Sequence record: PP400777 | From: Escherichia phage JM10 | Strand: one strand, 5' to 3' | Length of the DNA stretch: 64,000 nt | In this document: positions 4,526 through 58,583 of the stretch, in pieces | Position numbering within the stretch: position 1 is the stretch's first letter | Layout of the letters: every line of letters starts with the position of its first letter | Made by a program: the position numbers and the translations under genes | The notes under the pieces: model-generated | Seen by the model: only the letters and a program-made list of their open reading frames with translations | Told to the model about the DNA's origin: nothing | Databases searched by the model: none

Positions 4526-4837
4526 TTATACCGCCATTTTAGCTTTGATAGCTGGATGAGATTCGTAATTTTTAAGAACGAAATCAGAATGTGTCATCGT
4601 TCCAGTAACCCAGTCCATTTGGATTTTTGTAGGCCAATTCTCAAAATTACTAGGCCAATTAATTTCAAGAGAACACAACTCTTTAGGTTCACGACGAAGA
4701 ACTTCTTTGCATTGTTCTACATGATTGCTGTAGATATGTGTGTTGCCGCCTGAGAACACTAAATCACCTGGGATAAGGTTACACATCTTCGCTACAATAT
4801 GCGTCAAGGCAGCGTACGAGGCAATGTTGAACGGTAG
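4526..4837 (-). CDS. td: Thymidylate synthase, exon 2
   Basis: LPFNIASYAALTHIVAKMCNLIPGDLVFSGGNTHIY... continues TS after the exon 1 end ...VDVFLG; exon1+exon2 = 286 aa. Confidence 0.9.
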   Translation of the reverse strand, partial: LPFNIASYAALTHIVAKMCNLIPGDLVFSGGNTHIYSNHVEQCKEVLRREPKELCSLEINWPSNFENWPTKIQMDWVTGTMTHSDFVLKNYESHPAIKAKMAV

Positions 4838-5853
4838 CATTATGTTCAGATAAGGTCGTTAATCTTATCCCGGAATTATATCCAGCTGCATGTCACCATG
4901 CAGAGCAGACTATATCTCCAACTTGTTAAAGCAAGTTGTCTATCGTTTCGAGTCACTTGACCCTACTCCCTAAAGGGATAGTCGTTAGGCATTTATGTAG
5001 AACCAATTCCACTTATCAGATTTTACACGGTAAGTAACTAATCCTGATGAAATTTCAAAATGTCTAGCCGCATCGGCTGCACATTCAAAAATAATCCCAT
5101 CGCATGAAATCTTTTTGATGTTAGCTGGCTTTTTGCCTTTCATCTTTTCAGATAGTTTAGTTTTAGTTTTTTCTGAATGTTTGTGATTAAAGAACGGGTT
5201 ATTTTCACCTGAACGTTTTCGGCACTTTCCACAAGTATCGGCCGAAGATGGTATGCGAACACCGCATTTACAAAACTTGTGGTTTTCTGGATTCCATCGG
5301 CCATTTTTACTTCCGTGTTTACCATAAAGAGCTTTCCGACCGTCAGGACCAAGCTTAAGCATCTTAGCTTTAACAGTTTCAGCTCGTTTCTTAGCAATTT
5401 CTTCTTTTAATGGATGATTTGAAAGCACATCGCCAAAAGACGCATCAGCAATATTATATCCATTAATTTTAGAATTTAGCTCTTTAATCCAAAAATTTTC
5501 TCGTTCAATAATCAAATCTTTCTCATATGTAATTTCTTCCAGTACAGAGCATTCAAAAACATTACCATGTTTATTAAAAGACCTTTGAAATTTTATAGAA
5601 GAGTGAACACCGTTTTCAAGGTCTTTAAAATGTCTCTTCCATCTTTTCTCAAAATCTTTAGCACTTCCAACATACACTTTACCGTTTAAAGTGTTTTTAA
5701 TCTGATAAATTCCGCTTTTCATAAACACCTCTTTTTATATAGAAGTATTTATTAAAGGGTAGTCCTACAATTTAGCACGGGATTGTCTACTAGAGAGGTC
5801 CCCCGTTTAGATAGATTACAAGTATAAGTCACCTTATACCTAGGCCTAAATTA
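4838..5853 (-). mobile_element. Group I intron in td (1016 nt) with I-TevI ORF
   Basis: Intron begins UAAUUUAGGCCUAGGUAUAAGGUGACUUAUACUUGUAAUCUAUCUAAACGGG (T4 td intron-like 5' end), ends ...AAUG before CUACCG; length 1016 nt as in T4. Confidence 0.88.
4985..5722 (-). CDS. I-TevI: GIY-YIG homing endonuclease I-TevI (intron-encoded)
   Basis: MKSGIYQIKNTLNGKVYVGSAKDFEKRWKRH... GIY-YIG domain plus C-terminal zinc finger/NUMOD3-like DNA-binding region; listed ORF trimmed to the MKSG start. Confidence 0.92.
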   Translation of the reverse strand: MKSGIYQIKNTLNGKVYVGSAKDFEKRWKRHFKDLENGVHSSIKFQRSFNKHGNVFECSVLEEITYEKDLIIERENFWIKELNSKINGYNIADASFGDVLSNHPLKEEIAKKRAETVKAKMLKLGPDGRKALYGKHGSKNGRWNPENHKFCKCGVRIPSSADTCGKCRKRSGENNPFFNHKHSEKTKTKLSEKMKGKKPANIKKISCDGIIFECAADAARHFEISSGLVTYRVKSDKWNWFYINA

Positions 5854-7237
<1,384 letters not shown>

Positions 7238-10065: not shown

Positions 10066-10983
10066 TCAGAATTCATTAATTACACTTGTTAATTTAGAAA
10101 GACCAGATTTTACAAAGTATGAATAAATCTTGCCTTTAGGTTGTTGTTTATATGAGTTATAATACTCTATAATGGTTGAAGCAATATTATCAGGTATATA
10201 ATCAAAATCAATGAGAACCAAATTTTCTTGATACCGTTTATATTCTTCTGCACTTAATAATACTTCAGCTTGAGAACGGTCATTAGCAATTGCTTCAATA
10301 ATTGATGTTTTCATACTTGGAGTTCGTTCACCATCAACTCTGGTAAACCAGAAGTCACCACGAACTCGAACAGATGCAACGCCGTCTTTACGGTCACCTT
10401 TAAGAATTTTAGTCATGCAATCAATTTCAGCAGAACAGTTCTTAATTTTAACCCATTTTTTCTGTGGTGGCGACCACTGTTTAACGTTAGGATATTTGTG
10501 TAATTGTGTAAAGTCACCATCTGATGCAACAATACATACCTTATGACCAGCTAATGACAAATATTTAGTTAATACACCGATATGGTCATCCGCTTCATAC
10601 TTGTCAATATCCATTACAACGTATGGCATGTATTTCTTAATCTCATCAACAACTTGATGGAGTGCAGTAAAATATCCTTCCCAATCCCACTTTGAAGCTT
10701 CACGATCGGTTTTACGATTTTTCTTGTAATAGTAAGCAAAGTCACGACGCCAATAACCTGAAGTAGCATTATCCATACACAATACAAATTTTGTATAGCC
10801 TTGCTTACGGAACATCACTACGTTTTTACGAATTGAATTCAAGATTACATGGCGAACCATTGGTATCGTAATTTTATCGCCGTCTTCAAAGTTGTTTAAT
10901 GCGGCTGCCAATGCAATGTTACTAAAGTCGGCAAGTGCAATACCTTCTTTATAATCTTCATCCAACATCATTTCTAAATCCAT
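10066..10983 (-). CDS. rnh: RNase H / 5'-3' exonuclease (FEN-1 family)
   Basis: 305-aa ORF at the T4 rnh position, divergent from gene 34. Confidence 0.85.
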   Translation of the reverse strand: MDLEMMLDEDYKEGIALADFSNIALAAALNNFEDGDKITIPMVRHVILNSIRKNVVMFRKQGYTKFVLCMDNATSGYWRRDFAYYYKKNRKTDREASKWDWEGYFTALHQVVDEIKKYMPYVVMDIDKYEADDHIGVLTKYLSLAGHKVCIVASDGDFTQLHKYPNVKQWSPPQKKWVKIKNCSAEIDCMTKILKGDRKDGVASVRVRGDFWFTRVDGERTPSMKTSIIEAIANDRSQAEVLLSAEEYKRYQENLVLIDFDYIPDNIASTIIEYYNSYKQQPKGKIYSYFVKSGLSKLTSVINEF

Positions 10984-11086: not shown

Positions 11087-14000
11087 ATGGCCGACATCAA
11101 ACGTAAGTTCAGAGCCGAAGACGGTCTGGACGCCGGTGGCGACAAGATTGTTAACGTAGCATTAGCCGACCGTACAGTAGGTACTGATGGCGTAAACGTT
11201 GACTTCCTGGTACAAGAAAACACCGTTCAAGTATATGATTCTACGCGTGGATATAACAAAGGATTTGTTGTTCTTTATGACAACCGTTTATATCAAGCAA
11301 TAAATGATATCGTGTCTCCTTCCGGGGCATTTAACCTTTTACAATGGCGTGCAGTTCGTACTGATGCACAATGGATAACTGTCGCTTCTGGGACTTATCA
11401 ACTTTCTTCAGGTGAATCGATTTCGGTTAACACTGGTGCCGGCAATGATATGGTTTTCACGTTGCCGAATACGCCGGTTGATGGTGATACTGTTGTTTTG
11501 GCTGATATTGGTGGAAGAACCGGGACAGTTAAAGTACAGATTAACGCGTCTGTGCAGAGTATTTTAAACTTTAGAGGTGAACAAGTTCGTACAGTTTTAA
11601 TGACGCGCCCACGTTCACAACTATTGTTTGTGTTTAGTAATCGTTTGTGGCAGATGTATATTATCGATTATGGTAAAGAATCAATCACTGTTACACCTGC
11701 GACACCATATCAAGCACAAGCAAATGATTTTATCGTTCGTCGTTTTACTAGTGCAGCACCAATCAACATTACACTTCCACGTAATGCTAACAATGGTGAT
11801 ATAATCCACCTAGTTGATTTAGATAAATTAAACCCACTGTATCATACAATTGTTAAAACATTTGATGATACAACGTCTATCGGTGAAGTCGGGACTCATA
11901 TTGCCGAAGGCAGAAATGACTCTGACGCGTTTTTTGTTTTTGATGCTGCAAATAGTTTATGGCGTATACGGGAAGGCGACCAGAAATCGCGTCTTCGTAT
12001 TATCCGTGCGGATTCAAATATTCGTCCAAATGAAGAAGTTCTTATTTTTGGCACAAATAACGCTACAACCGGAACTATTAATCTTACGCTGCCTTCTGGA
12101 ATTTTGAGTGGTGACACTGTTAAAATTTCAATGAACTACATGCGTAAAGGCCAAACAGTAAAAATTAAAGCTGCCGAAGGTGATACAATTGCTTCTTCTG
12201 TTGCATTGCTTCAGTTCCCTAAACGTTCTGAATATCCACCTGATGCTCAATGGGTCTCTGTTACTGAACTAGAATTCAATGGCACTACTTCATATGTTCC
12301 TGTATTAGAATTAGCGTATATCGAAGACACCGTTGCTGGTACACGTTATTGGGTTGTTCAACAAAACGTCCCGACTGTAGAACGTGTTGATGCTGGAACT
12401 GATGCTACACGAGCTCGTTTAGGTGTTATTGCTCTTGCTACTCAAGCGCAAGCAAATGTTGATTTAGAGAATACTCCAGCTAAAGAAGTGGCTATTACTC
12501 CTGAAACGTTGGCAAATCGTACAGCAACTGAAACTCGACGCGGTATCGCTAAAATTGCTACAACAGCACAAGTTAATCAGGATTCTACTGCAACATTTGT
12601 GGATGATACTATCGTTACGCCTAAGAAATTAAATGAGCGTACAGCGACTGAAACTCGTCGCGGTTTAGCAGAAATAGCTACTCAAGCAGAGACTGATGCT
12701 GGGACTGATGATACAACTATTATCACTCCTAAGAAATTACAGGCACGTCAGGGTTCAGAAACTCTGTCTGGTATAGTTAAATATGTATCGACTGCTTCAG
12801 CTACTCCTGCTGCTACTCGTGGAACTGCAGGCACTAACGTTTATAATAAAGACACAACTACGTTAACTATTTCGCCTAAAGCTCTCGATCAGTATAAAGC
12901 GACTTCTACTCAACAGGGTGCTACTATTCTGGCTCTTGAAAGTGAAGTAATTGCTGGTCAATCCCAAGCAGGTTATTCTCACGCTGTAGTAACTCCTGAA
13001 ACACTACATAAGAAAACTTCTACTGATGGACGTATTGGTTTAATTGAAATTGCTACGCAAGAAGAAACTAATGCTGGGACTGATTATACACGTGCAGTAA
13101 CGCCTAAGACGTTAAATGATAGGAAAGCTACGGAAGGATTATCCGGCATAGCCGAACTTGCTACGCAAGTTGAATTTGATACTGGAACTGACGATACTCG
13201 TATCTCAACTCCACTGAAAATTAAAACTCATTTTGATTCTTCTGACCGTACCAGTGTTAATTCTGATTCCGGACTTATTGAAGAAGGAACCTTGTGGAAC
13301 CATTATACTCTTGATATTTCTAAAGCAAATGAAACACAACGTGGCACACTTCGCGTAGCGACCCAGGCAGAATCTAATACAGGAACTTTAGATGATGTTC
13401 TTATTACTCCTAAAAAGCTTTTAGGGACTAAGTCCACTGAAACGTCTGAAGGCGTAATTAAGGTTGCTACTCAGGCTGAAACTGTAACAGGAACTTCTGC
13501 TAATACTGCTGTATCTCCAAAAAATTTAAAATGGATTGCGCAGAGTGAACCTACCTGGGCAGCTACTACTGCGATAAGAGGTTTTGTTAAAACTTCATTC
13601 GGTTCTATTACATTTGTTGGCGACGATACTCAAGGTAGTACACAGGACCTGAATCTTTACGAGAAAAATAGTTATGCTATTTCTCCATATGAATTAAATC
13701 GCGTATTAGCAAATTATTTGCCATTGAAAGCTAAAGCTGTAGATAGTAATTTATTAGATGGACTAGATTCATCTCAGTTCATTCGTAGGGATATTGCACA
13801 GACGGTTAATGGTTCACTAACCTTAACCCAACAAACGAATCTGAGTGCCCCTCTTGTATCATCTAGTACTGCTACGTTTGGTGGTTCAGTTTCGGCAAAT
13901 AGTACATTAACTATTTCTAACTCTGGAACAGCAACTCGTCTGATTTTTGAAAAAGGACCTCAAACTGGAACTAACCCAGCGCAGACGATGACTATCAGAG

Positions 14001-31947: not shown

Positions 31948-31959
31948 AATTAAGCCTTA

Positions 31960-31991
31960 TTAAAATTAAAATGAAGCTCCCGAAGGAGCTT
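31960..31991 (-). terminator. Terminator-like hairpin at the end of gene 39
   Basis: AAGCUCC-UUCG-GGAGCUU hairpin overlapping the stop codon, followed by CAUUUUAAUUUUAAU. Confidence 0.55.
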
Positions 31992-33810
31992 AGGACATCC
32001 ATTCTTTACGAAGTTCTGAATCATCACCCATCAACATTTCAAAGAGTTCTTTCCAATTTTCAGGAAGTTTAACTACGTCGTACACAGGGTTCTGAATCAT
32101 TTCACGATATTCTGACTTTTCAAGGGAGCCCAATCCCTTGATGTATCGAATACTATGCTTAGGCAGTGTATCTTTAACTTCTTCATACTCAGCTACAGTA
32201 TAAAACCATTTTTGAGTTTTGCCAATTTGTGCAATAATTACAGGCGTTTTAACAAAGCGAATACGTCCTTGTTCGAACAATTCAGGCCAATTACTAAAGA
32301 AAGCAAGCAAAGCCGGATAAATACTTCCAAGACCGTCATGATCGGCATCGGTCATAATTGCAATATTACGATAGTTCGTATTCTCTGCCTTTTCACCAAG
32401 AATAAGACCTGTGATAGCACAGATATCAAAGAGCTCTTTGTTCTTCATCATATCAGCATATGACATACCCCAGCTATTCATCACCTTACCACGTAACGGG
32501 AATCCGCCGTGTAGTTCACGGTCACGAACATCAATGAGATAACCAATTGCAGAATCACCTTCTGTTAAGAACAATGTCGTATCTGCATCTTTACCACATT
32601 GGTTAGCTTTAATATGCTTATGAACCTTAGCTTTAGTTGCCTTTTTAGCTGCTTTAGTTTCTGCAGCCTTTTCTGCCGCCAATTTACGAGCTAATGCTGC
32701 TTCAATTATAGGCATTAAAACTGCTTCAGAATTCAAAATATTTTTTGCCAATTTTTTTGTATCTAATTTAATATGCGTCCGAATTTCGCCATAAGGACTT
32801 GTTAAACGCTCTTTTGTTTGGGAATCAAAACGAAGGTTCTTCATTCCACGAACGAACATTAAGAGAGTGAGACATTCCTTGATGCGCGCTTTAGTCACGT
32901 CGATTTTATATTTGCGTTTAATAGCCGGAATTAATTCTTCGCAAATGTCGTCCATCACACATTCAATGTGATGACCACCGTTTTTGGTATGGATGTTATT
33001 CACATAAGTTAAATGACGGAAGCCATCTGGTGACCGTCCAATGGCAATAGAGCATCCGTCTTGTTCTTGAATGATGGTCTCTTCATCAAATTGTTTAGCA
33101 AACTTCTTAAAGTTACCTTGAATCTTTTTGCCATTAAATTTAAATTCAATACCAGGATAAACAACCGCCAATGTTTGGAGACGGTCTATAGTAATATCTT
33201 GGTATATTTTTTCAAATTGATTCATTTCAAAATGTGAGAAATCAGGAATAAACTCGACCTTAGTACCGTTGTTTTTAGACGGCTTAGATTTCCAAGAAAT
33301 ATTATCAGCGTTATTAGAACAATTAACGGTCAATTCATTTTTACCATCTGAAGTAGTGCCAACAAAAGAGACAGAAAAAATATTTGTTAATGAAGAACCG
33401 ACACCGTTTTGTCCACCCGTAACACGTTCTTTGTCGTCACCAAAGTTGCCACCGGCTTTTGTACGTGTCCACGCCGCAACTGGTCCTGGAATTTCTTCTC
33501 CTTCAGGAGTAATAACTGTTTCTTGAGGAATACCTCGACCATTATCTTCAACAGTCACTTTATTAGAATTTAAATCAATACTAACGGAAATTTTATTAGC
33601 ATATTTGAAATTGGTTCGAATAGCTTCGTCTACTGAGTTGTCAATAATTTCATCAATTAATTTGAGAACACCTGCAACATATTTAACCTTTTTAAATTCA
33701 CCGAATAGGAAACGTTCTTGTTCTTCATTGGCAACACTTCCAATATACATGCCAGGACGCTTCAAACAATGCTCTTTATCAGATAGCATTTCAATTTTAT
33801 TATCAATCAT
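31990..33810 (-). CDS. 39: DNA topoisomerase II large subunit, uninterrupted gp39+gp60 fusion (GyrB-like)
   Basis: Start taken at ATG (MIDNKIEMLSDKEHCLKRPGMYIGS; the listed ORF begins 5 codons earlier at a TTG); about 606 aa, i.e. includes the segment that T4 encodes separately as gene 60. Confidence 0.88.
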   Translation of the reverse strand: MIDNKIEMLSDKEHCLKRPGMYIGSVANEEQERFLFGEFKKVKYVAGVLKLIDEIIDNSVDEAIRTNFKYANKISVSIDLNSNKVTVEDNGRGIPQETVITPEGEEIPGPVAAWTRTKAGGNFGDDKERVTGGQNGVGSSLTNIFSVSFVGTTSDGKNELTVNCSNNADNISWKSKPSKNNGTKVEFIPDFSHFEMNQFEKIYQDITIDRLQTLAVVYPGIEFKFNGKKIQGNFKKFAKQFDEETIIQEQDGCSIAIGRSPDGFRHLTYVNNIHTKNGGHHIECVMDDICEELIPAIKRKYKIDVTKARIKECLTLLMFVRGMKNLRFDSQTKERLTSPYGEIRTHIKLDTKKLAKNILNSEAVLMPIIEAALARKLAAEKAAETKAAKKATKAKVHKHIKANQCGKDADTTLFLTEGDSAIGYLIDVRDRELHGGFPLRGKVMNSWGMSYADMMKNKELFDICAITGLILGEKAENTNYRNIAIMTDADHDGLGSIYPALLAFFSNWPELFEQGRIRFVKTPVIIAQIGKTQKWFYTVAEYEEVKDTLPKHSIRYIKGLGSLEKSEYREMIQNPVYDVVKLPENWKELFEMLMGDDSELRKEWMS

Positions 33811-34486
33811 TAGATTTTCTCTCAAATTGCATGACTATATTTTTGTATGAACCTTCCGGAAATCCACGTTTAATGCTTTCTTTAGCAAATTTCCCAACCT
33901 TTGGTTTATCCAATTCTAACCATAATTTATATAAAGCAGATTCATATTCCCATACAGGACTTTTACGATTTTTAAGCCCACACTTTATAAGTGCTTCCTT
34001 TGTATGTTTCTTATTATAAAATGGATTGTTTTTGCCACTCATTGCTTTAGAATGTTCCGGGCGCTTAATTCCATACATCGGATTAAGATCGCCTTTCTTG
34101 ATAACGGATTGTAGTTCAATAGTTTCTTCAGAGTGATTGTGTCCATAAAATGGATTTAACTCTTTTGAAACATCCATACCAAAGCACCCATCGACTGTGG
34201 CATAAGACATGTTGAAAAATTTTTCAGATTTAACCACATTATGCAATTTCTGGTAATACAACTCACAAAACGTCGCTTCTTCCCGTGTATCAAATTCGCC
34301 AATAATACATGAATCAAATAAATGAGGATTATCTTTTATCTCTTTATCATAAATTTGTTTATATTTTTTCGACTTTACCGTACCATGATAGTGATTGTTT
34401 GTATGTTTATCAAGATAAGTAGACCCTATATAAAACGGTGGCAACTTATCGCCTGTGTATATTGTTAAGTATGTTATGTATTTCAT
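33803..34486 (-). CDS. GIY-YIG family homing endonuclease-like protein with NUMOD3 repeats (seg-like)
   Basis: N-terminal YITYLTIYTGDKLPPFYIGS (GIY-YIG-like) and repeated NPFYGHNHSEET / NPMYGIKRPEHSKAMSGKNNPFYNKKHTKEA NUMOD3-type motifs. Confidence 0.65.
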   Translation of the reverse strand: MKYITYLTIYTGDKLPPFYIGSTYLDKHTNNHYHGTVKSKKYKQIYDKEIKDNPHLFDSCIIGEFDTREEATFCELYYQKLHNVVKSEKFFNMSYATVDGCFGMDVSKELNPFYGHNHSEETIELQSVIKKGDLNPMYGIKRPEHSKAMSGKNNPFYNKKHTKEALIKCGLKNRKSPVWEYESALYKLWLELDKPKVGKFAKESIKRGFPEGSYKNIVMQFERKSND

Positions 34487-34513
34487 AAAGGTATTCTATC
34501 ATCCGAAATCTAA

Positions 34514-34535
34514 AGCAAAAAGGGCCGAAGCCCTT
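34514..34535 (-). terminator. Terminator-like hairpin
   Basis: AAGGGC-UUCG-GCCCUU followed by UUUUGCUUU on the minus-strand transcript, overlapping the stop of the 141-aa ORF. Confidence 0.6.
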
Positions 34536-34959
34536 ATTTAAATTTAATTTTCTGAAGTGCATCAATTGCAGCCAAACGTCCTTGTTCACTTTTAACTGTA
34601 ATGACCACATCGCCTGATACGATCACCGAACCATCAACAAATTCTATAGAGCCTTTTTTGAAATCGACAGCTGTATCTGGTTCCTGAACTTCTTCAAAGA
34701 ATTTAAATTCTGCACCATAAAGCAGAATATCACCTTGCATACTATGAATAGTTCGGCCATAATCGCCTACGGCTTCTACAGCAATAACCGAAACACCGTA
34801 ACCAATCATCTCTTCCACAATAAAATCTTTGGACAATAAAGTAGTATGCAGATTAGTATTAAGACGTTTACCAGTCGTATTAAGAATTCTCAAGAAATTA
34901 TCTTCCTGTCCTTTGATAATACGATATTTCTTACCAACTTCAAAACCTTTAAAAGCCAT
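34534..34959 (-). CDS. Hypothetical protein (141 aa)
   Basis: ORF upstream of the seg-like gene; position and size are compatible with T4 goF but I cannot confirm. Confidence 0.5.
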   Translation of the reverse strand: MAFKGFEVGKKYRIIKGQEDNFLRILNTTGKRLNTNLHTTLLSKDFIVEEMIGYGVSVIAVEAVGDYGRTIHSMQGDILLYGAEFKFFEEVQEPDTAVDFKKGSIEFVDGSVIVSGDVVITVKSEQGRLAAIDALQKIKFK

Positions 34960-34961
34960 AA

Positions 34962-35141
34962 TTAACCCTTCTTAAGTAAGTCGTAAAAACCACCATTCAC
35001 ATGTTTAGGAGCAGAAACCCGACGAGTAGACAGATGATGACATTCAGGGCAAACATCGTTTTCTCGTTCAGAAATTCTTTTAATTTTTTCATATTCATGA
35101 CCACAATCTTCAGATTGACATTTATAGTCGTATAACGGCAT
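34962..35141 (-). CDS. Small zinc-ribbon protein (59 aa), not in ORF track
   Basis: [59 protein letters not shown]: C-x4-C ... C-x2-C zinc ribbon (FmdB-like); start overlaps upstream stop (TAATG). Confidence 0.55.
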   Translation of the reverse strand: MPLYDYKCQSEDCGHEYEKIKRISERENDVCPECHHLSTRRVSAPKHVNGGFYDLLKKG

Positions 35142-43424: not shown

Positions 43425-43748
43425 TCATTCACAGCTCCCTGAGCTTGAACCACAATCAGAATAACTTGACCCAGAATCACCAGGCCAAGACGATACGTAT
43501 GAATGATTATAACTTGAAGAGCTTGAAGCATTAACCTGTTTTGTTTTTGGACGAATAACTTCTTCCATCATGCCGTCACCAATGTATTCCCAACTTTTTT
43601 CGTGTGTATCAGGAATAGGCATCATACCTTCGCCTGGTTTAACAGCAAACAACTTCTTCAGCATCGTAAGCATTAATTGTTCCTCGAACAAAACGAACAC
43701 CACCGTCATCCCAACGGATTTCGGCATTAAATTTGACGTCTTCACCAT
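43425..43748 (-). CDS. Hypothetical protein with Ser-rich C-terminal tail
   Basis: C-terminus ASSSSSYNHSYVSSWPGDSGSSYSDCGSSSGSCE; N-terminus overlaps the next ORF in another frame, true start uncertain. Confidence 0.4.
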   Translation of the reverse strand: MVKTSNLMPKSVGMTVVFVLFEEQLMLTMLKKLFAVKPGEGMMPIPDTHEKSWEYIGDGMMEEVIRPKTKQVNASSSSSYNHSYVSSWPGDSGSSYSDCGSSSGSCE

Positions 43749-56898: not shown

Positions 56899-58583
56899 TA
56901 GATTCGTTCCCATTGATGAGTGATATCGCCACCGATTGGACGATAGGAAACACCAGTTTCTTTATCAGTTAGTACCCATTTACCAGGATTTTTTGTAATC
57001 AGAGTAGCCGTTACAGGTTCTGCTACGTCATAACTAATAGAGCCGTCCTGAAGTACACGGCCCATGTTACGTAATTGCTTAGTCAGAAGTTCCATACCTT
57101 TATAATATGCGGCTACCGCTTTAAGTGGATTATTCTTGAAATAACCACCTAATGCAATCCAGATAATTGCCACTGCCAAATGATGATACTCGTTAAACGA
57201 ACTCATCTTTCCATATTTGTAAACTAATGGATTGATGTTAATAGTCACATTACAAGTTGTTTCATCAATAGTAAACTGTCCCCAGGTCGGATTAGCATTG
57301 AATTCATCATAACCTGAAACAGCATAAAGCACTTTAGCTTCATCATACAATTTTGGCCCGTAAATCTTGGTTTCGCCAAAATATCCACGAGGGTCGATAA
57401 ACTTGACTTCGCCGTTATCAGTAATCATAGTATTACTGAAGTTCGGGTCACCGTGAATAACAGAGTACTGCCCCTGAGAACGGTTATGATAACGAATAAG
57501 GTGTTCTAAAGCTTGTTTCAGCATTGGCTTCAGACGTCCAATCTTAGTGTAGTTCACATGTGTGATTTTACCAAATGAATCAATCAATGGTTGAATGCTT
57601 TCACAACGATCAATAACTTTCGTATAGAATTCTTTAGTGAAATCACGACGAACAGTTTCAGGACTTACAAAATAAGTGTCTGTGCTGAATTTCAGTGCAT
57701 CTAAAATTGCATCAACAATTTGTGGACGAGCAAGACTTGATTTGGATTTAATATATTCAAATGCCGGCTTACCTTTAATGCGTTCCATTTCAAAGTTATT
57801 TTCATTAACAGAAACTAACTGAGGAACTGAATCTGATTTCACTTTAAGATACCATGAAATCTCATCTTTCTGAAGAGCTCGACCTTGTTCAGTTAATGCG
57901 AATTTAGTTACAGTTTCTTCACCAATTTCAACTGCATTAAAACTACGATTAAGTTCACGAACTTCATGAGCTTTTTCAAGTTTAGGCATATCACCTAAAT
58001 CAATTATATTCATAAGCTCTGATTTATTGAATGCGCCGCTGTAAAGGAATTCTACAAAATCACGTCCTTTGCAGTATTCATGAATTTCCTCATCGGTAGA
58101 ACCCATATAGAATTCCCAGTCTTTGAACTGATAAATTCCTACAACATTACCACCTGTTGAACCTACGTTAGTGATATTTTCACCGTCGAAATTATAGCGA
58201 CATTCGTCACCCTTAACATAGATTGCGTTGACATTCCAAGACCATGAACCAAAATCAGGAATAATATCGCACCAGTTAACAATTACGTTATGGCCATCTA
58301 AATCTTTGTGTAATTTAGCAAGAGCATAAGCAGATCCGTATGCTTCATCAACTGTACGAATAGTCACATTGAACCCTTCTTGCTCACAATAAGCTCGAAC
58401 AGTTTCAGCAAATTTTGAATGAACTACTACAATAATTTCATCTGCGCCAAGGTCAGAATAAATTGTATACAAATTGCTCAGAATAGTGTCTTGTTTATAG
58501 TTAACAAGCACCTTAGGAATATGATGCGTTATTGGATACAAACGAGTTGCCAGTCCAGCACCAAGAATAACAGCTTTTTTCAT
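56898..58583 (-). CDS. Bifunctional sugar-1-phosphate nucleotidyltransferase (RmlA/GalU-like) / APH-fold sugar 1-kinase
   Basis: N-terminus MKKAVILGAGLATRLYPITHHIPKVLV matches the G-x-G-T-R-L signature of sugar-1-P nucleotidyltransferases; C-terminal VIHGDPNFSNTMITDNGEVKFIDPRGYFGE matches the HGD...N / D-x-E motifs of aminoglycoside/choline/anomeric-sugar kinases; 561 aa. Confidence 0.7.
   Translation of the reverse strand: MKKAVILGAGLATRLYPITHHIPKVLVNYKQDTILSNLYTIYSDLGADEIIVVVHSKFAETVRAYCEQEGFNVTIRTVDEAYGSAYALAKLHKDLDGHNVIVNWCDIIPDFGSWSWNVNAIYVKGDECRYNFDGENITNVGSTGGNVVGIYQFKDWEFYMGSTDEEIHEYCKGRDFVEFLYSGAFNKSELMNIIDLGDMPKLEKAHEVRELNRSFNAVEIGEETVTKFALTEQGRALQKDEISWYLKVKSDSVPQLVSVNENNFEMERIKGKPAFEYIKSKSSLARPQIVDAILDALKFSTDTYFVSPETVRRDFTKEFYTKVIDRCESIQPLIDSFGKITHVNYTKIGRLKPMLKQALEHLIRYHNRSQGQYSVIHGDPNFSNTMITDNGEVKFIDPRGYFGETKIYGPKLYDEAKVLYAVSGYDEFNANPTWGQFTIDETTCNVTININPLVYKYGKMSSFNEYHHLAVAIIWIALGGYFKNNPLKAVAAYYKGMELLTKQLRNMGRVLQDGSISYDVAEPVTATLITKNPGKWVLTDKETGVSYRPIGGDITHQWERI

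Follow-up and report, generated by a model that had tools for sequence, protein, structure and literature searches.

In phage T4 the free-standing GIY-YIG endonucleases SegG, encoded upstream of gene 32, and SegF, encoded upstream of gene 56, carry out a process termed intronless homing (PMC2988022). Here we describe a gene of this kind, referred to as seg, in a 64,000-nucleotide (nt) stretch of DNA from Escherichia phage JM10 (record PP400777; hereafter the window). It lies directly upstream of gene 39, which encodes the large subunit of a type II topoisomerase, and its product shares its modular layout with I-TevI and the T4 Seg proteins, combining a GIY-YIG domain, NUMOD3 repeats and a helix-turn-helix (HTH)-like domain. 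We consider it likely, with good confidence, that seg is a free-standing Seg-type homing endonuclease gene now standing in place of the gene 39 5' untranslated leader, and that it spreads and is expressed by the mechanism proposed below. A first-pass annotation made from the letters of the window had called a GIY-YIG/NUMOD3 Seg-like endonuclease gene at 33803-34486, overlapping the start of gene 39. An open reading frame (ORF) of 227 amino acids occupies exactly this interval on the minus strand, directly upstream of the topoisomerase gene and overlapping it by 8 nt, and the comparative data, the predicted fold and the conserved residues all support the core of that call.

Like segG and segF, seg is free-standing, has its presumed target in the essential or replication gene immediately downstream, uses the transcription unit of its host and overlaps the neighbouring gene by a few nt. 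The gene 32 promoters lie within segG, and seg similarly contains a predicted promoter for gene 39. A further likeness is the co-conversion of flanking sequence, seen for seg as linked sequence tracts, which would lead to marker exclusion. In contrast to SegG and SegF, the seg protein has a lysine where the catalytic arginine is expected and is encoded at the P39/gene 39 locus, its gene starts at a predicted +1 of transcription with no Shine-Dalgarno (SD) sequence, and its cleavage and homing are predicted from sequence. By tblastn its catalytic domain shows no similarity to any T4 Seg protein, and the sole match in T4 is the C-terminus of MobD. I-TevI (1ln0 and 1mk0 for the catalytic domain, 1i3j for the DNA-binding domain) is encoded within an intron, carries a zinc finger and uses R27, and the late transcript from which it is translated has its ribosome-binding site sequestered (PMC3014915); seg, in contrast, is free-standing and specifies three NUMOD3 repeats, no zinc finger and K27, with no RNA hairpin at its start. 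MobA (bioRxiv 10.1101/2022.08.31.505936; PMC2988022) and seg are associated with the same host gene, but MobA is an HNH nickase that inserts inside the ORF, splits gene 39/60 and brings a bypass cassette, whereas seg lies outside the ORF, at its 5' end, and leaves it intact. We regard seg as an uncharacterised addition to the known free-standing Seg-like type, a fairly ordinary but well-supported one, and only its predicted leaderless start and putative Lys-for-Arg active site go beyond the textbook picture. A literature search for an endonuclease gene in the position upstream of gene 39 returned no paper.

The window comes from a Mosigvirus and is about 98-99% identical to phages AV109, AV114, AV115, AV116, G2285 and HX01; the seg protein is 100% identical to those of the four AV phages and 99.6% identical to that of HX01. 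The gene stands between goF and an intact gene 39, inside neither an intron nor an intein, and an Rfam search of 33300-35000 gave no match at E<=1, which places seg outside any intron. The next gene downstream on the minus strand encodes the topoisomerase II large subunit (PHROG 543, E 1.9e-285), with GyrB, HATPase and Toprim domains in Pfam, and because this ORF is unsplit, the T4 genes 39 and 60 are fused here. The TTG at 33825, given as the start of gene 39 by the ORF-listing program, is a start in no homolog. Since the homologs all begin MI[DKQ]N, the true start is the ATG at 33810 (MIDNKIEML), which sets the overlap with the seg stop codon at 8 nt; in all orthologs this overlap is 8-14 nt.

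The seg protein has 173 homologs at E<=1e-3, and the ratio of nonsynonymous to synonymous substitution rates (dN/dS) among nine seg orthologs is 0.08-0.35, indicating that seg is not a chance ORF. Its distribution is that of a presence/absence polymorphism at a conserved locus. A 2.6-kb query spanning the region is covered whole by 9 records; in hundreds of relatives the match breaks in two, leaving out about 0.7 kb. The insert is present in about 8 HX01-like Mosigviruses and missing from some 150 other Mosigvirus records, and within Jiaodavirus it occurs in 11 of about 140. All of the roughly 33 full-length orthologs in our phage collection, which share 64-78% amino acid identity, adjoin gene 39; their hosts span Mosig-, Dhaka-, Karam-, Jiaoda-, Teguna-, Braga- and Gualtarvirus as well as Klebsiella phage Biddle, at least eight lineages. 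The wider family reaches up to four copies per viral contig, and its N-terminal domain also occurs with other C-termini at other loci. The window itself holds no second copy of seg, and the sole weak match there is to the NUMOD3 region of an I-TevI ortholog.

The features of the locus are collected in Table 1. NUMOD3, which the first-pass annotation expected a domain search to find, is clearly present, with PF07460 scoring 45.2 bits over three stretches, one per repeat (cut-off 20.4), and the Pfam scan of the protein returned nothing beyond it at E<=0.1. In the DNA-binding domain of I-TevI (1i3j), a profile built from the family also matched the NUMOD3 segment (E 8e-4). The catalytic domain gave weaker signals in sequence. 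The alignment to PF01541, the GIY-YIG family, covers seg residues 3-83 and profile positions 2-73 of 78; weak matches to the same family were found in 30 of 58 relatives (best E 1.5e-4), and none of the 120 listed homologs carries a precomputed one. TIGR01453, a model of group I intron endonucleases, scored 24 bits (E 2.9e-5), under its own cut-off of 56. A phmmer search of the PDB with the seg protein found no match. The family profile against the PDB and an hhalign comparison with I-TevI, whose query sequence was checked against 1mk0, 1ln0 and 1i3j, reached the NUMOD3 region only, and the same region alone was matched when seg was compared by BLASTP with the I-TevI ortholog of the window. 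Because these GIY-YIG signals are weak, the domain assignment is based on the predicted fold and the conserved residues.

Table 1. Positions of seg, gene 39 and associated features in the window
Feature	Coordinates	Strand	Details
seg-like ORF	33803..34486	minus	227 amino acids; ATG start, TGA stop
Divergent GIY-YIG-type catalytic domain	34196..34486	minus	residues 1-97
Three NUMOD3 repeats	33977..34174	minus	residues ~105-170; PF07460
C-terminal three-helix, HTH-like putative DNA-binding domain	33809..33958	minus	residues 177-226
Gene 39, topoisomerase II large subunit	31990..33810	minus	unsplit; 606 amino acids from ATG
Overlap of seg stop and gene 39 start	33803..33810	minus	8 nt, ATGATTGA
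seg-linked foreign tract	32706..33810	minus	first 1105 nt of gene 39
Intrinsic terminator hairpin after goF	34520..34535	minus	AAGGGCTTCGGCCCTT followed by a T run
Resident gene 39 middle promoter	34493..34519	minus	MotA box TTTGCTTTA (34511-34519), 12-nt spacer, -10 TAGAAT (34493-34498)
seg ATG	34484..34486	minus	A at 34486 = predicted +1; 6-nt gap after -10; no SD upstream
Embedded gene 39 middle promoter (predicted)	33913..33938	minus	TGCTTTA, 13 nt, TAGAAT; within the seg ORF
Gene 39 Shine-Dalgarno	33819..33823	minus	GAGAG, encoded by the C-terminal seg codons F-E-R

In the predicted structure the N-terminal domain is a compact alpha/beta fold of the order beta-beta-alpha-alpha-beta-alpha, in which a three-stranded antiparallel sheet (beta1 3-10, beta2 18-24, beta3 57-65) is flanked by helices (25-30, 40-52 and 68-81), as in GIY-YIG domains, and its best structural matches are I-TevI, UvrC and Eco29kI, with T4 EndoII also among them. 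The key residues of this layout are Y6, Y19-I20-G21, K27, Y33, S39, E75 and N92. Across 121 family sequences the positions that are invariant or nearly so are Y6, Y10, G12, P16, Y19, I20, G21, S22, Y33, G35, S39, E49, F57, A71, E75 and N92, and, apart from the arginine discussed below, the GIY-YIG catalytic residues that the first-pass annotation proposed to look for on alignment are among them (Y6 in 117 of 117, Y19 in 121 of 121, G21 in 120, E75 in 121 of 121 and N92 in 120 of 121; I20 is found in 120). The first motif reads I-T-Y, and the two motifs are 12 residues apart rather than the usual 10-11. In a forced alignment of hidden Markov models the family E75 falls on the metal-binding E75 of I-TevI, and N92 is the counterpart of the conserved asparagine (N90) of GIY-YIG enzymes. 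We conclude that the N-terminal domain is a divergent GIY-YIG domain in which one defining residue appears to be conservatively substituted.

The comparison of seg+ and seg-less genomes shows that seg is accompanied by a foreign tract in gene 39. Relative to the seg-less Mosigvirus NRG-P0074, the first 1105 nt of gene 39 are only 70.3% identical, compared to 97.8% over the 2 kb upstream and 98.4% downstream. The left edge is clean: NRG-P0074 is identical through the -10 hexamer, and the two sequences part no more than 3 nt from the seg ATG. A megablast search with the tract returned full-length matches of at least 98% only in seg+ phages, whereas all other records reached at most 80%. The tract was derived from no sampled genus. 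Dhakavirus was considered as the direct source and rejected, as even Bp7, the best match, is only 73-83% identical over the tract. An independent case is found in Jiaodavirus, where Nispero (seg+) and JIPh_Kp122 (seg-less) differ over about 610 bp at the start of gene 39 and are about 99% identical on both sides. Co-conversion of flanking sequence is thus seen as linked tracts of 1105 bp in Mosigvirus and about 610 bp in Jiaodavirus. Furthermore, the 5' end of gene 39 falls into two classes. Class A (MIKNEIKILSD...KRSGMYIGSSA) is found in the seg-less phages T4, RB14, NRG-P0074, JIPh_Kp122 and PG7, and class B (MI[DQE]NKI[EQ]MLSDKEH...KRPGMYIGSV) in seg+ phages, and the pairing of class B with seg and class A without it holds within each of Mosig-, Karam- and Jiaodavirus. 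The class B allele would be resistant to cleavage.

We propose that in mixed infections the seg enzyme would cut seg-less class A genomes somewhere between the gene 39 transcription start and about the first 600 bp of the gene, and that repair of the double-strand break from a seg+ genome would copy in seg together with the uncut class B 5' end of gene 39. This scheme is modelled on SegF, SegG and SegE (PMC2988022). Taking the shortest linked tract as a bound, the target would lie downstream of the gene 39 transcription start and no further into the gene than about nt 610. The endonuclease would be translated at a low level during the middle period, from a leaderless mRNA started at the resident MotA-dependent promoter, and gene 39 would be kept expressed by the promoter embedded in seg and by the SD in the last seg codons. 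If so, the locus offers a clear case of intronless homing in nature, in which the endonuclease gene, the imported immune allele of an essential topoisomerase gene and the regulatory repairs made by the embedded promoter and SD can all be read from the sequence. Pairs of seg+ and seg-less phages suitable for crosses exist, such as HX01 or the AV1xx phages against RB69, JS09 or NRG-P0074.

The start codon of seg falls at a predicted transcription start. T4 middle promoters have a MotA box placed 12+/-1 bp from a -10 element at -12 to -7 (PMC2988021). A promoter of this kind precedes seg in the window, and the same middle promoter stands in front of gene 39 in seg-less NRG-P0074 and in T4. The mapped start of T4 P39 is at coordinate 5349 (PMC2988021 Table 1), which is the 7th nt after TATAAT. 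The equivalent position in the window is the A of the seg ATG, and because this ATG sits at the predicted +1 and has no SD, the seg mRNA is probably leaderless and would be weakly translated; transcription starting 1-2 nt further downstream would give no translation of seg from this promoter. The idea that the promoter travels as part of a mobile cassette in Mosigvirus was rejected, as seg-less Mosigviruses and T4 share the same architecture before gene 39. Bp7 appears to carry a different promoter of its own. The terminator hairpin after goF is likewise conserved in seg-less phages and in other genera.

The arrangement of a -10 hexamer, a gap of 6-7 nt and an ATG with no SD recurs in six of nine lineage representatives. 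The promoters of these six are of different types, being MotA-type in the window, KMB20, Biddle and TG1, extended -10 in Bp7 and -35/-10 in Nispero; a normal leader containing GGAG or AAGGAGG is present in the other three, IME281, PSTRCR_121 and PM2. Of 52 members of the wider family, only a paralog upstream of gene 47, described below, repeats the -10/ATG arrangement without an SD. In the window, sites of the form TGCTTNA, 11-13 nt, TANNNT number 15 against 3.8 expected, about a four-fold enrichment that none of 100 shuffles reached, and just two of the 15 have an ATG 5-7 nt after the -10 element, one being the promoter before seg and the other lying at 57296-57331 (minus strand). Most of these middle-promoter-like sites are on the minus strand, for example at 6455-6478, 10159-10183, 13302-13327 and 43506-43530. 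A generic sigma-70 scan showed no enrichment (6 observed, 7.8 expected), and a late promoter, TATAAATA, was not found within 9 kb of seg. RNA folding was used to look for a hairpin able to mask the seg start or to draw a remote SD up to it; the terminator hairpin alone was found (z -1.2), and the seg/39 junction gave no structure (z 0.0).

Promoters for the downstream host gene are embedded in T4 segG, segA, segE, mobB and mobC (PMC2988022), and we infer that seg likewise contains a second middle promoter for gene 39 that is held in place by synonymous constraint. Its predicted +1 lies near 33906, which would give a 96-nt leader before the gene 39 ATG. The motif is present at the same codons in eight of the nine orthologs, with one mismatch in IME281, and the stretch that contains it has the highest third-position conservation in seg, 0.79 against a mean of 0.52 (standard deviation 0.087). 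The codons for Ala184 (GCT), Leu185 (TTA) and Glu191 (GAA) are fixed in all nine, accounting for three of only eight fully fixed codons in the gene. An SD for gene 39 equivalent to that in the window (GAGAG, AGAGG or GAGGA) is found in all orthologs.

Several observations weigh against seg being an active homing endonuclease. The first-pass annotation looked to a domain search for GIY-YIG as well as NUMOD3, and PF01541 remains below threshold (10.4 bits, E 0.84, cut-off 22.6), so that its GIY-YIG call stands on the predicted fold and conserved residues and not on the Pfam score. The canonical catalytic arginine appears as Lys27, on the helix 25-30; in the 121 family sequences this position is K in 84, R in 20, N in 12 and another residue in 5, and its putative equivalence to I-TevI R27 is read from spacing and helix position only. 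In phage AV118 the seg copy (L011 ~2200-2773) has a 1-nt deletion in an A6 run at about codon 40 as well as D26N, and the annotated product is only a 135-residue remnant; decay of the gene would fit a homing endonuclease, but the frameshift may instead be a sequencing error in the homopolymer. The seg+ Mosigviruses may form one clade, in which case the genus would record one acquisition and not repeated homing. The linkage of seg to the gene 39 allele is also not universal, as Dhakavirus FB lacks seg yet has the same class B allele as seg+ Bp7; this fits either loss of seg or an ancestral immune allele and is proof of neither. Phage Biddle, although seg+, begins gene 39 with GTG and class-A-like codons, which means that the target cannot consist of the first 20 bp alone. 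Finally, a literature search found no biochemical or genetic test of any family member.

The lysine at position 27, with asparagine in some relatives, could mean that seg is a domesticated or catalytically dead relic that still binds DNA near P39, maybe as a regulator, and neither cuts nor homes. I-TevI represses its own promoter, and the position of seg right on the gene 39 promoter would suit such a role, as would the sub-threshold GIY-YIG score and a single clade of seg+ Mosigviruses. We nevertheless consider a relic unlikely, as Y6, Y19, G21, E75 and N92 are invariant across the 121 sequences and purifying selection extends over the whole protein, and as two genera each carry a linked tract, independent and unequal in length (1.1 kb and 0.6 kb), and the gene is scattered over at least eight lineages at a single locus. 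Less probable again is that seg is an ordinary accessory gene that descended vertically with many losses, and that the divergent stretch of gene 39 arose by mosaic recombination unrelated to a nuclease. T4-like genomes are mosaic in general, FB keeps a Bp7-type gene 39 without seg, and gene 39 diverges at its 3' end too, where the cause is a different one. However, the divergent tract begins exactly at the insert and is strictly linked to seg, and the pairing of seg with class B recurs in three genera that have class A, seg-less members. The nuclease fold joined to sequence-tolerant DNA-binding modules is typical of homing endonucleases, and family members occur several to a contig and at other loci as well, all of which argues against simple descent and loss.

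The label 'HNH endonuclease', which RefSeq gives to the orthologs of HX01, Bp7, TG1 and PM2 and which PHROG 10820 also bears, is refuted. It is backed by annotation strings only, whereas no HNH family of Pfam matches the seg protein at E<=0.1, the fold is GIY-YIG-like with I-TevI, UvrC and Eco29kI as its best structural matches, and the GenBank submitters of TG1 and Nispero write GIY-YIG. The name is found on orthologs in NC_018855, NC_019500, NC_028820, NC_055727 and NC_055740 and in PHROG 10820, and in GenBank many orthologs are labelled 'hypothetical protein' and a few 'GIY-YIG homing endonuclease'. The analysis exposes a systematic mis-annotation of the family in RefSeq and PHROGs.

A Seg-type homing endonuclease remains our preferred reading, and a paralog upstream of gene 47 (L026 2460-3118/L031), found in Tequatrovirus-like genomes (about 100 GenBank phages, H49-H62), shows a similar start-codon arrangement at another locus. 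The N-terminal domain of this 205-residue protein is 52-66% identical to that of seg, and its gene shares 14 nt with the start of gene 47, the essential gene downstream. As with seg, a hairpin is followed by TTTGCTTTA, 11 nt, TAAAAT, 6 nt and ATG with no SD. The spacer of this promoter (TTCGGATGATA) is nearly identical to that in the window. Unlike seg, the paralog has an unrelated C-terminal DNA-binding part, lies at a different locus and has no embedded second promoter. We tentatively suggest, while judging it somewhat more doubtful than not, that the seg clade and the gene 47 paralog evolved a start codon at the +1 of a host middle or early promoter, so that the enzyme would be made only from a leaderless mRNA and its gene would carry a replacement promoter and SD for the host gene, and that the seg nuclease defines a GIY-YIG subfamily that works with lysine in place of the catalytic arginine. 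The down-regulation known for T4 seg and mob genes involves hairpin-sequestered ribosome-binding sites, internal terminators and RNase E processing, and a leaderless start at +1 would be a mode not described among them. If confirmed, the leaderless start and the Lys-for-Arg substitution would represent a new regulatory trick and a variant active site in a well-studied enzyme class.

The first-pass annotation also suggested that seg targets the hotspot remodelled by mobA in T4. The two do have the host gene in common, but the site is different. The MobA insertion site is nt 1399-1419 of the topoisomerase ORF (bioRxiv 10.1101/2022.08.31.505936). The seg gene stands at nt 0, with a linked tract that extends as far as nt 1105, and about 1.4 kb separates seg from the MobA site. 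In related phages gene 39 is flanked by several different endonuclease genes, and at least three or four distinct families of endonuclease appear to have visited it, at different sites. An HNH+NUMOD3 gene lies between the gene 39 stop and the alpha-glucosyltransferase gene in NRG-P0074 (L099 232-1029) and AV118 (L011 4589-4939); in the window these two genes are separated by 42 nt only (31948..31989). Over the last ~170 nt of gene 39 (31990..32160) the window and NRG-P0074 are 82.5% identical, against 98.4% just upstream. In Proteus phage PM2 (L009 2868-5072) a seg ortholog lies upstream and the topoisomerase ORF ends after 515 residues, followed and overlapped by another 'homing endonuclease' gene in a mobA-like split. 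VR26, a Gaprivervirus (L097 172-401), has a 253-residue gene annotated as 'endonuclease VII' directly upstream of a gene 39 with a class-B-like 5' end (MIENKIELLSDKDHCLKRPGMYIGSV), which may be another endonuclease at the same site as seg. Seg-less Jiaodaviruses such as JIPh_Kp122 (L093 1823-2191) have an unrelated ORF of 122 residues with no Pfam match at the position of seg in Nispero, indicating that the site holds alternative cargo.

Elsewhere in the window, the thymidylate synthase gene td appears to be split on the minus strand (4526..6402), with exon-like ORFs at 5851..6402 and 4526..4840, and an I-TevI ortholog (MKSGIYQIKNTLNGKVYVGS...WNWFYINA) lies between them at 4985..5728. Rfam reported no intron model there at the gathering threshold; judged by its arrangement, the split would be a group I intron that carries a canonical GIY-YIG endonuclease.

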